A stretch of DNA of 64,000 nucleotides from Escherichia coli (GTDB taxonomy: Bacteria > Pseudomonadota > Gammaproteobacteria > Enterobacterales > Enterobacteriaceae), in assembly GCF_022846255.1 (NCBI RefSeq), contig NZ_AP025682.1; one strand, written 5' to 3'. The notes beneath the pieces are model-generated. The model made no database searches, was not told where the DNA came from, and was given only the letters and a program-made list of their open reading frames with translations. Made by a program: the position numbers and the translations under genes. This document shows, piece after piece, positions 5,842-11,762 of the stretch (positions are counted from its first letter, which is position 1; the number at the start of each line of letters is the position of its first letter).

Positions 5842-6372
5842 ATGAAATACAATAACATTATTTTCCTCGGTTTATGTCTGGGGTTAACCACCTATTCTGC
5901 TTTATCCGCAGATAGTGTTATTAAAATTAGCGGGCGCGTCCTCGATTATGGCTGCACAGTCTCATCGGATTCGCTTAATTTTACCGTAGATCTCCAAAAA
6001 AACAGTGCCAGACAATTTCCAACGACCGGTAGCACAAGTCCAGTCGTCCCTTTTCAGATTACATTAAGTGAATGCAGCAAAGGGACAACGGGAGTTCGGG
6101 TTGCATTTAACGGTATTGAGGATGCAGAAAATAATACTCTGTTGAAACTAGATGAAGGAAGCAATACGGCCTCCGGTTTGGGTATAGAAATACTGGACGG
6201 AAATATGCGTCCGGTGAAATTGAATGACCTTCATGCTGGGATGCAGTGGATCCCATTGGTACCAGAACAGAACAATATTTTGCCTTACTCCGCTCGTTTG
6301 AAGTCAACTCAGAAGTCCGTCAATCCAGGACTGGTGAGCGCTTCGGCAACCTTTACCCTTGAATTTAAATAA
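5842..6372 (+). CDS. ydeS: Fimbrial minor subunit (FimF-like)
   Basis: 176 aa with signal peptide; length and order match K-12 ydeS. Confidence 0.85.
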   Translation: MKYNNIIFLGLCLGLTTYSALSADSVIKISGRVLDYGCTVSSDSLNFTVDLQKNSARQFPTTGSTSPVVPFQITLSECSKGTTGVRVAFNGIEDAENNTLLKLDEGSNTASGLGIEILDGNMRPVKLNDLHAGMQWIPLVPEQNNILPYSARLKSTQKSVNPGLVSASATFTLEFK

Positions 6373-7934: not shown

Positions 7935-7952
7935 ATCCTACACTTGTAAGAA
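7935..7952 (+). promoter_or_regulatory. EvgA box upstream of ydeP
   Basis: aTCCTACA-CT-TGTAAGAA matches the EvgA inverted-repeat consensus TTCYTACA-N2-TGTRGAA. Confidence 0.6.
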
Positions 7953-8051
7953 AATCCGCGCACAATTGAAGCCAGAGTCTTATTTTTTATATTGAGAATT
8001 ATGTTAATTTAAACCCTATGAGAGATGATGCTTAACTTATCGTATTTATAC

Positions 8052-8200: not shown

Positions 8201-10480
8201 ATGAAGAAAAAAATTGAATCCTACCAGGGAGCTGCCGGTGGTTGGGGTGCTGTTAAATCCGTAGCGAATGCAGTACGTAAGCAGATGGATATACGCCAGG
8301 ATGTTATTGCCATGTTTGACATGAATAAGCCAGAGGGCTTTGACTGTCCGGGATGTGCATGGCCAGATCCTAAGCACAGTGCGTCATTCGACATTTGTGA
8401 AAACGGCGCAAAAGCAATCGCCTGGGAAGCCACGGATAAGCAGGTAAATGCCTCTTTCTTTGCTGAGAATACGGTTCAATCATTACTTACCTGGGGAGAT
8501 CACGAGCTTGAGGCTGCGGGACGTCTCACTCAGCCTTTGAAATATGATGACGTCAGCGACTGTTACAAGCTATTAAGCTGGCAACAAGCTTTCGACGAAA
8601 TTGGCGAACGCCTTCAAAGCTATAGTGATCCCAATCAGGTTGAATTCTATACTTCGGGCCGCACTTCCAATGAAGCTGCCTTTCTTTATCAGCTTTTTGC
8701 CCGTGAATACGGGAGCAATAACTTCCCCGACTGCTCCAACATGTGCCATGAACCGACCAGTGTGGGTTTGGCAGCGAGTATCGGTGTAGGTAAAGGGACC
8801 GTGTTGCTGGAAGACTTTGAGAAATGCGATTTAGTCATTTGCATTGGGCATAACCCTGGTACAAACCACCCTCGCATGTTGACTTCGTTGCGCGCTTTAG
8901 TGAAACGGGGAGCGAAAATGATCGCCATCAATCCTCTACAGGAACGTGGCCTGGAGCGATTTACCGCACCGCAAAACCCGTTTGAAATGCTGACGAACTC
9001 TGAGACTCAGTTGGCCAGTGCCTACTACAACGTGCGCATTGGTGGTGATATGGCGTTGCTCAAGGGGATGATGCGCCTGTTAATTGAGCGCGATGATGCT
9101 GCAAGCGCCGCAGGTCGGCCCTCATTGCTGGATGACGAATTTATTCAAACGCATACCGTCGGCTTTGACGAGCTACGCCGTGACGTGCTCAATTCCGAGT
9201 GGAAAGATATCGAACGTATTTCTGGATTAAGTCAGACTCAAATCGCCGAACTGGCTGATGCATATGCCGCTGCCGAACGCACCATTATCTGTTACGGAAT
9301 GGGGATCACTCAGCACGAACATGGTACCCAGAATGTACAGCAACTGGTCAATCTGCTGTTGATGAAAGGTAACATTGGCAAGCCTGGTGCGGGTATCTGC
9401 CCACTACGAGGTCACTCTAATGTACAGGGCGACCGAACCGTCGGTATCACCGAGAAACCGTCTGCAGAGTTTCTGGCTCGCCTGGGTGAGCGCTATGGTT
9501 TCACCCCACCTCATGCACCTGGACATGCTGCAATTGCCAGCATGCAAGCAATATGTACGGGGCAGGCTCGCGCATTGATCTGCATGGGGGGCAACTTTGC
9601 ACTGGCAATGCCAGATCGGGAAGCGAGCGCTGTACCGTTAACGCAATTAGATCTGGCGGTACACGTTGCCACTAAGCTTAACCGCTCTCATCTGCTGACC
9701 GCACGGCATAGCTATATTCTGCCGGTTCTGGGACGTAGCGAGATTGACATGCAAAAAAGCGGTGCGCAGGCGGTAACCGTTGAAGATTCAATGTCGATGA
9801 TTCATGCCTCGCGTGGTGTGTTAAAACCCGCCGGTGTAATGCTGAAATCAGAGTGTGCAGTGGTCGCGGGAATCGCGCAAGCAGCACTACCCCAGAGCGT
9901 GGTAGCCTGGGAGTATCTGGTGGAAGATTATGATCGCATTCGCAATGACATTGAAGCTGTGCTGCCAGAGTTTGCCGACTATAACCAGCGCATCCGTCAT
10001 CCTGGTGGTTTTCACCTGATAAACGCAGCAGCTGAAAGGCGCTGGATGACGTCGTCAGGTAAGGCTAATTTCATTACCAGTAAAGGGCTGTTAGAAGATC
10101 CCTCTTCAGCGTTTAACAGTAAGCTGGTCATGGCGACAGTACGCAGTCACGATCAGTACAACACGACGATTTATGGTATGGATGATCGCTATCGAGGGGT
10201 ATTCGGTCAACGAGATGTGGTCTTTATGAGTGCTAAACAAGCTAAAATTTGCCGTGTAAAAAACGGCGAAAGAGTTAATCTTATTGCACTCACGCCAGAC
10301 GGTAAACGTAGCTCACGCCGCATGGATAGATTAAAAGTGGTCATTTACCCTATGGCTGACCGCTCACTGGTGACCTATTTTCCAGAATCGAATCACATGC
10401 TAACACTTGATAACCACGATCCATTAAGTGGCATTCCTGGCTATAAAAGTATTCCGGTTGAATTAGAACCATCAAATTAA
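8201..10480 (+). CDS. ydeP: Acid-resistance molybdopterin oxidoreductase (formate dehydrogenase-like, FdhF family)
   Basis: 759-aa ORF matching YdeP length and sequence; no in-frame TGA. Confidence 0.92.
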
Positions 10481-10598
10481 TTCGCCTCCTCATTTCTTCT
10501 GCTGTCATCCGCACAGCAGAAGAATTCCTCATTGACTATTATCGCGCAATTTGCTCACATGGATTAAATTAAACCACACACTATAAGATATAAACTTC

Positions 10599-10616
10599 TG
10601 CCTACAGCTGTAAGAA
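10599..10616 (+). promoter_or_regulatory. EvgA box upstream of safA-ydeO
   Basis: TGCCTACA-GC-TGTAAGAA matches the EvgA consensus. Confidence 0.6.
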
Positions 10617-10727
10617 ACTCCGCTCAGTACTGAAGTACCCGTCCTATTTCCTCTATTCTCCAGCCTGTTATATTAAGCATACTGATTAACGATGCTTAAC
10701 GTCATTCGTTTAATAAACACATTTGAA

Positions 10728-10925
10728 ATGCATGCGACCATAGTGAAAAATAAAATCACGCAAAGAGACAACTATAAAGGGATCATGTCTGTAATTGTGG
10801 TTGTCTTATTACTGACCCTTACATTGATAGCCATTTTTTCGGCAATTGATCAGCTGGGTATTTCAGAAATGGGTCGCATTGCAAGGGATCTTACACATTT
10901 CATTATCAATAGTTTGCAAGACTGA
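10728..10925 (+). CDS. safA: SafA, small membrane connector between the EvgS/EvgA and PhoQ/PhoP two-component systems
   Basis: 65-aa product MHATIVKNKITQRDNYKGIMS…THFIINSLQD with one TM segment; directly upstream of ydeO. Confidence 0.85.
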   Translation: MHATIVKNKITQRDNYKGIMSVIVVVLLLTLTLIAIFSAIDQLGISEMGRIARDLTHFIINSLQD

Positions 10926-11000: not shown

Positions 11001-11762
11001 ATGTCGCTCGTTTGTTCTGTTATATTTATTCATCATGCCTTCAACGCTAACATTTTAGATAAAGATTACGCCTTCTCTGACGGCGAGATCCTGATGGTAG
11101 ATAACGCTGTTCGTACGCATTTTGAACCTTATGAGCGGCATTTTAAAGAAATCGGATTTAATGAAAATACCATTAAAAAATATCTACAATGCACTAACAT
11201 CCAGACAGTGACGGTGCCTGTTCCTGCGAAGTTTTTACGTGCTTCAAATGTACCGACTGGATTGCTTAATGAAATGATTGCTTATCTCAACTCGGAAGAA
11301 CGCAATCATCATAATTTTTCAGAACTTTTGCTTTTTTCTTGCCTGTCTATTTTTGCCGCATGCAAAGGTTTCATTACACTATTAACTAACGGTGTGCTAT
11401 CCGTTTCCGGGAAAGTGAGAAATATTGTCAACATGAAGCTGGCGCACCCATGGAAGCTGAAAGATATTTGTGACTGCCTGTACATCAGTGAAAGCCTGTT
11501 GAAGAAAAAACTAAAGCAAGAGCAAACGACATTCTCACAGATTCTTTTAGATGCCAGAATGCAGCACGCAAAAAATTTGATACGCGTAGAAGGTTCAGTC
11601 AATAAAATTGCCGAACAATGTGGTTATGCGAGTACATCTTATTTTATTTATGCGTTCCGCAAACATTTCGGCAACAGTCCAAAGAGAGTTTCTAAGGAGT
11701 ACCGTTGTCAAAGGCACACGGGTATGAACACGGATAACAAGATGAGTGCTTTAGCTATTTGA
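11001..11762 (+). CDS. ydeO: AraC-family acid-resistance regulator
   Basis: 253 aa with C-terminal AraC HTH; position after safA. Confidence 0.9.
   Translation: MSLVCSVIFIHHAFNANILDKDYAFSDGEILMVDNAVRTHFEPYERHFKEIGFNENTIKKYLQCTNIQTVTVPVPAKFLRASNVPTGLLNEMIAYLNSEERNHHNFSELLLFSCLSIFAACKGFITLLTNGVLSVSGKVRNIVNMKLAHPWKLKDICDCLYISESLLKKKLKQEQTTFSQILLDARMQHAKNLIRVEGSVNKIAEQCGYASTSYFIYAFRKHFGNSPKRVSKEYRCQRHTGMNTDNKMSALAI

Follow-up and report, generated by a model that had tools for sequence, protein, structure and literature searches.

The 18 bp at positions 10599 to 10616 on the plus strand of the 64-kb stretch of Escherichia coli DNA analyzed here (the window) read TGCCTACAGCTGTAAGAA, and we consider it highly probable that they form the operator of EvgA at the safA-ydeO promoter. 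This reading draws on what was computed here, namely the sequence, rarity, and genomic context of the site, the degree to which it is conserved, and the constant distance between it and a -10 element, and on what has been published, namely direct binding of EvgA to the safA-ydeO promoter and EvgA-dependent induction. The site is almost certainly the already-described EvgA box of K-12 b1500/safA, encountered here in another E. coli strain.

The EvgA box and its genomic context

The site is an 18-bp inverted repeat, TGCCTACA-GC-TGTAAGAA, and represents the upstream-most element of the safA-ydeO promoter. As a yardstick we used the EvgA consensus TTCYTACA-N2-TGTARGAA, composed of two 8-bp arms and a 2-bp spacer, which is reported to go back to Masuda & Church (2003) and Itou et al. 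(2009). When the site is compared with this consensus (TTCYTACANNTGTARGAA), 15 of the 16 specified positions agree, the sole mismatch being a G for T at position 2. Base for base, including the G at position 2, the box is the same in K-12 MG1655, the strain in which the published work on EvgA and safA-ydeO was carried out; there it occupies approximately 1584071-1584088 of NC_000913.3, on the minus strand. Kato in 2000, Masuda and Church in 2003, and Itou in 2009 are said to have described EvgA boxes for emrKY, ydeP, b1500/safA, yfdX, frc, and yegR. The K-12 boxes and the box at 10599-10616 have the same length, arms, 2-bp spacer, and inverted symmetry, and we see no substantive difference between the latter and the boxes of the K-12 EvgA regulon. 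Judging from reviews and from the consensus, EvgA would probably protect exactly these 18 bp. A reading of the 18-mer as an RNA hairpin or terminator was dropped, since the 2-nt spacer between the 8-bp arms cannot make a hairpin loop.

Matches to the consensus are rare in the window. At no more than one mismatch there are two sites only, 10599-10616 and ATCCTACACTTGTAAGAA at 7935-7952, and none of 100 dinucleotide-preserving shuffles of the window contained any site of that quality. Relaxing the threshold to three mismatches, at which 0.70 sites are expected, still yields just these two. The first-pass annotation had pointed to a consensus match upstream of safA-ydeO and to the presence of two EvgA targets inside 3 kb. 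Both statements are borne out, as the sequence is the one quoted there, with its 15 of 16 agreement and its absence from the shuffles, and a distance of 2,664 bp separates the two boxes.

The box is located in the intergenic region between ydeP (8201-10480) and safA (10728-10925), with the safA ATG 111 bp downstream. The genes ydeP, safA, and ydeO all lie on one strand, the plus strand of the window, and were assigned from their open reading frames together with the RefSeq annotation of identical E. coli DNA. The first gene of the operon, safA, encodes a connector of 65 amino acids by which PhoQ is activated, is named "two-component system connector SafA" in RefSeq, and corresponds to K-12 b1500. 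The second gene, ydeO (11001-11762), encodes an activator of the AraC family that acts on gadE and on further acid-resistance genes, and is followed in the window by ydeN and ydeM. A 701-bp query spanning this part of the window matched several complete E. coli chromosomes, annotated with ydeP, safA, and ydeO, at 100% identity, and the region was found in 5,379 of 5,426 E. coli genomes; the gene order in K-12 MG1655 is the same as that of the window. The earlier proposal that the EvgA site belongs to safA-ydeO is upheld by these RefSeq names, by the identity with K-12, by the papers on direct EvgA binding, and by the enrichment, conservation, and -10 spacing that are described below.

The evgAS genes are absent from the 64-kb window. 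Since evgA is present in 5,398 of the 5,426 complete E. coli genomes, it is very likely that this particular strain carries it as well. In NCM3722, CY598, and CY706, the evgA match comes in two pieces around an IS1A element, and the gene appears to be interrupted there.

Recurrence, conservation, and spacing of the box

The consensus was also checked on K-12 DNA that is independent of its discovery, namely 20 kb around evgAS and the yegR and gadE loci. The 20 kb around K-12 evgAS contain four matches at up to three mismatches versus 0.19 expected (0/100 shuffles), and all four are intergenic: one between emrK and evgA, a perfect match in front of frc, and two more in front of yfdX. K-12 yegR has a site with one mismatch 106 bp upstream. 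Of the promoters carrying such boxes, those of ydeP, frc, yfdX, and yegR have been reported to be bound by EvgA (PMC8147483). The gadE promoter is also listed in papers as EvgA-bound; upstream of K-12 gadE there is no match to the consensus at up to three mismatches, and for this reason gadE was unusable as an extra test promoter. The only match in the K-12 segment 3654000-3660000 (locus L014) is TTCTTACGCATGAAAGAA at 5887-5904, which has two mismatches and lies inside mdtE.

The ydeP-safA intergenic region is unusually variable in E. coli, with most genomes being 90 to 95% identical to the window over 251 bp, and within this region the box at 10599-10616 is selectively conserved over the flanking noncoding DNA. 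Among nine E. coli haplotypes, sampled down the identity ranking of the E. coli matches, differences within the box are confined to its outermost base (T/C) and a single base of the spacer (C/T), and the stretch from 10600 to 10635 is invariant apart from that one spacer base. The 36-mer at 10599-10634 was found in 5,370 of the 5,426 complete E. coli genomes, and its 5,372 matching records comprise 4,362 with at least 99% identity and 1,010 with one mismatch, none being worse. By comparison, the neighboring upstream 36-mer reaches at least 99% identity in just 461 records; another 3,239 records carry it with two mismatches, and approximately 580 genomes lack it.

A cross-species YdeO scan of genome contigs returned three loci, two consisting of near-identical E. 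coli DNA and one originating from a divergent Escherichia (L012) with a YdeO that is 93% identical. Because two of the three loci are near-identical E. coli DNA, cross-species conservation refers here to a single outgroup. In this outgroup, 16 of the 18 positions of the box are kept, the changes again affecting the outermost base and the spacer base, while identity is 53% in the upstream spacer and 65% over the whole ydeP-safA intergenic region. The two near-identical loci, which carry ydeP-safA-ydeO with a YdeO 99% identical to that of the window and an identical EvgA box, go under the names "uncultured bacterium UMGS1713" (L010) and "Candidatus Nanosynbacter sp. MAG" (L011), and both look like E. 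coli contigs that were binned into the wrong genomes.

A consensus promoter scan detected no canonical promoter upstream of safA. The scan demands a good -35 and the region is without one, and it hence missed what we predict, on the basis of conservation and spacing, to be an extended -10 element, TGtTATATT, at 10666-10674 on the plus strand (TG at 10666-10667, hexamer at 10669-10674). This element is invariant in the E. coli haplotypes and reads TGcTATATT in the divergent Escherichia, the change affecting the "n" base alone. Transcription of safA is predicted to start at about 10681 (near 1584006 in K-12), and, given the position of the extended -10 at 10666-10674, we infer that the box is centered near -73.5 to -74.5.

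To analyze the distance between box and -10, all offsets downstream of the box were scored with a -10 matrix in the promoters of safA, ydeP, frc, yfdX, and emrK. A single sharp optimum emerged, with a -10-like hexamer starting 53 to 54 bp after the box in the five promoters (0/2000 shuffles), the distance for yfdX being taken from the proximal three-mismatch box, which was picked over the distal one-mismatch box after the sequences had been inspected. The hexamers at this distance are TATATT for safA, TAATTT for ydeP, TATTCT for frc, TATGAT for yfdX (proximal box), and TAAATT for emrK. The yegR promoter, which was examined later, is consistent with this spacing, with TATTAT at +54, but the DNA there is so AT-rich that its agreement is weak.

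Further downstream, the safA leader at 10692-10712 occurs in two E. coli haplotypes that are distinguished by about six linked differences in 20 bp: GATGCTTAACGTCATTCGTTT is found in the window, EFF60, and Z1323HEC0462, and GATTTTTAACGTTATCCGCTA is found in K-12, ST131, and O26. In the safA leader of the window, TTAACG occurs twice as a direct repeat, at 10686-10691 and, 10 bp further on, at 10696-10701, and the ydeP leader is closer to this version of the safA leader than to the K-12-type version.

A promoter module shared by ydeP and safA

The sister box ATCCTACACTTGTAAGAA at 7935-7952 (plus strand), upstream of ydeP, heads a module that is similar to that of safA. The modules compared were 7935-8047 for ydeP and 10599-10711 for safA. 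Aligned on their boxes, the two promoters are identical at 38 of the 62 positions from the end of the box to the -10 (0/20000 shuffles), as opposed to 9 of 40 positions upstream of the boxes, and this in-register likeness is also seen in K-12 (39/62) and in the divergent Escherichia (35/62). Since the similarity begins exactly at the box, the latter forms the 5' edge of a common cassette. The blocks that the two promoters have in common are AAnTCCGCnCAnnAnTGAAG, GTCnTATTT, TGnTAwwTTAA, and the leader sequence GATGCTTAAC, the last located at 8027-8036 in ydeP and at 10691-10700 in safA. The order of the elements, box, AAnTCCGCnCAnnAnTGAAG, GTCnTATTT, extended -10, and leader GATGCTTAAC, is kept in the divergent Escherichia lineage.

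This likeness suggests either that a promoter cassette was duplicated or that the two promoters have additional binding sites in common. A more specific proposal, which we put forward only tentatively and consider rather doubtful, is that PydeP and PsafA share a cassette of about 100 bp, derived by duplication of an ancestral module, of which the conserved 35 bp between box and -10 might serve as a second, previously undescribed protein contact, either through BvgA-like spreading of EvgA dimers in the direction of the polymerase or through binding of RcsB. The two promoters differ in that the distance from box to ATG is 248 bp for ydeP versus 111 bp for safA. They also differ in that the safA-ydeO promoter is repressed by YdeO and PhoP as well (PMC5619816), whereas ydeP has been described as simply regulated (PMC7174508). 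Compared with its safA counterpart, the ydeP box varies more, reading ATCCTACACTTGTAAGAA in the window, AGCCTACACCTGTAAGAA in K-12, and ATCCTACGCCTGTAAGAA in the divergent Escherichia, with a constant right arm.

Between the safA box and its -10 lies a conserved block, AACTCCGCTCAGTACTGAAG....GTCCTATTTCC, at 10617-10651 on the plus strand, with GTCCTATTTCC occupying 10641-10651, and the ydeP promoter has this block as well, in register. It harbors a perfect 10-bp palindrome, TCAGTACTGA, at 10624-10633, the center of which is 21 bp from the center of the box. Positions 10617 to 10635 are invariant in the nine E. coli haplotypes, and 17 of these 19 positions are conserved in the divergent Escherichia. 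No known motif could be assigned to the block, which may be a second point of attachment for additional EvgA dimers or for another factor. When a second EvgA dimer site was sought in it, agreement with the consensus amounted to 8 to 9 of 16 positions at +20 to +22, indistinguishable from background. Between 10481 and 10727, nothing matches the RcsB-box pattern TNRGA-N4-TCYNA with one mismatch or fewer, and over the whole window the pattern is rarer than expected by chance.

Among well-studied regulators, EvgA has its closest relative in BvgA of Bordetella. At fha and ptx, BvgA occupies a primary inverted-repeat site far upstream, and further dimers bind cooperatively at intervals of about 22 bp until the -35 region is reached. 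The safA promoter is reminiscent of this arrangement in that the interval downstream of the box holds a conserved block with a palindrome centered 21 bp away. Unlike at the BvgA promoters, the block at 10617-10651 is only a candidate secondary site and agrees with the EvgA consensus at only 8 to 9 of 16 positions, and the half-sites differ from the BvgA heptads. With regard to other factors, H-NS binds the promoter regions of ydeO and ydeP (PMC2984483), and acid induction of ydeP and gadE requires both EvgA and RcsB (PMC7174508).

Alternative readings and the acid-resistance cascade

Just past the ydeP stop codon, at 10494-10524 on the plus strand, is a hairpin with a 12-bp stem, TTCTTCTGCTGT/ACAGCAGAAGAA, and a folding energy of -17.5 kcal/mol (z = -4.9; 0/200 shuffles). 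In the divergent Escherichia, all 24 stem positions are conserved and none of the 7 loop positions is; this perfect conservation of the stems while the loop changes is suggestive of a functional ydeP 3' end. The terminator scan called no terminator after ydeP, the hairpin being without a T-tract (just four T in the next eight positions). The hairpin is likely to represent the ydeP 3' end or terminator and would, as such, separate ydeP from the safA promoter.

The nature of this hairpin bears on the question whether safA-ydeO might be transcribed mainly by read-through from the EvgA-dependent ydeP promoter, the second box then being redundant or acting as a booster. The three genes are indeed co-directional, the wording "ydeP-safA-ydeO operon" has been used in one paper (PMC11052181), and the lack of a T-tract, with which the hairpin was not called a terminator, would fit such a scenario. 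We nevertheless consider it very unlikely, given that conservation of the box, of the block that follows, and of the extended -10 far exceeds that of the intergenic DNA around them, that the conserved stems and free loop of the hairpin suggest a functional 3' end, and that reporters carrying only the safA promoter respond to EvgS/EvgA (bioRxiv 10.64898/2026.05.06.723403; PMC5619816). Alternatively, the palindrome could be the target not of EvgA but of some other member of the NarL/FixJ family that works in the acid network, for example RcsB or GadE. In favor of this, the right arm includes TAAGAA, which resembles part of the RcsAB box. The requirement for RcsB alongside EvgA in the acid induction of ydeP and gadE (PMC7174508) points in the same direction. 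However, the safA promoter is devoid of matches to the RcsB box at up to one mismatch and the window shows no enrichment of the pattern, whereas the arms (TTCYTA...TARGAA) are oriented, and separated by 2 bp, as in the EvgA consensus. This consensus, moreover, recurs upstream of emrK and of the EvgA-bound ydeP, frc, yfdX, and yegR (PMC8147483), so that binding of a different regulator of this family in place of EvgA strikes us as extremely improbable. Finally, the expectation of 0.7 sites per 64 kb at up to three mismatches might be taken to mean that the palindrome is a chance match devoid of function. This is effectively refuted by the lack of any shuffle match at the one mismatch observed, by the selective conservation of the site, by its location in the right intergenic region, and by a spacing to the -10 that is the same as that at other EvgA promoters.

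Assignment of 10599-10616 to EvgA is consistent with the published regulation of this promoter. Direct binding of EvgA to the safA-ydeO promoter is stated in a passage of PMC9496106 that cites Itou et al. 2009, and it is also reported in PMC8147483. The promoter is activated by EvgA after a drop in pH and repressed by YdeO and PhoP (PMC5619816), a PsafA-gfp reporter reads out EvgS/EvgA activity (bioRxiv 10.64898/2026.05.06.723403), and a cascade from EvgA via YdeO to GadE has been described (PMC4222967).

In the mechanism that we envisage, mild acid would activate the sensor kinase EvgS, which would in turn phosphorylate EvgA, a helix-turn-helix protein of the NarL/FixJ type, and a dimer of EvgA~P would then occupy both halves of the inverted repeat, each 8 bp long. 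Bound EvgA would turn on a sigma-70 promoter that has an extended -10, no usable -35, and a box centered at about -73.5. Since the box is too distant for direct contact at the -35, polymerase would most likely be contacted through the alpha-CTD of RNA polymerase in a class-I-like manner or through further proteins on the conserved 35 bp in a BvgA-like spreading mode. The resulting safA-ydeO transcript would provide SafA, which turns on PhoQ/PhoP, and YdeO, which turns on gadE and hence gadBC further along the window (PMC4222967; bioRxiv 10.64898/2026.05.06.723403; PMC9496106). YdeO and PhoP exert negative feedback on the safA promoter (PMC5619816). The connection of this block to the cascade and to gadBC, already drawn in the first-pass annotation, holds up, as gadB (22641-24041) and gadC (24197-25732) are both present in the window and the cascade is as described in PMC4222967.

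In conclusion, the finding is correct but not new: publications on K-12 already cover the site, its regulator, and the cascade, and since the sequence is identical it offers nothing new for the field. A mildly new angle, which may already be published too, is provided by the cassette shared by ydeP and safA and by the fixed spacing between box and -10. Together, these two features may aid in dissecting the contact between EvgA and RNA polymerase or the place of action of RcsB. For the acid response of E. coli, the box at 10599-10616 is the entry point to the cascade of EvgA, YdeO, and GadE and to the SafA link with PhoQ/PhoP, and its correct annotation connects gadBC, located in the same window, with the ydeP-safA-ydeO block.
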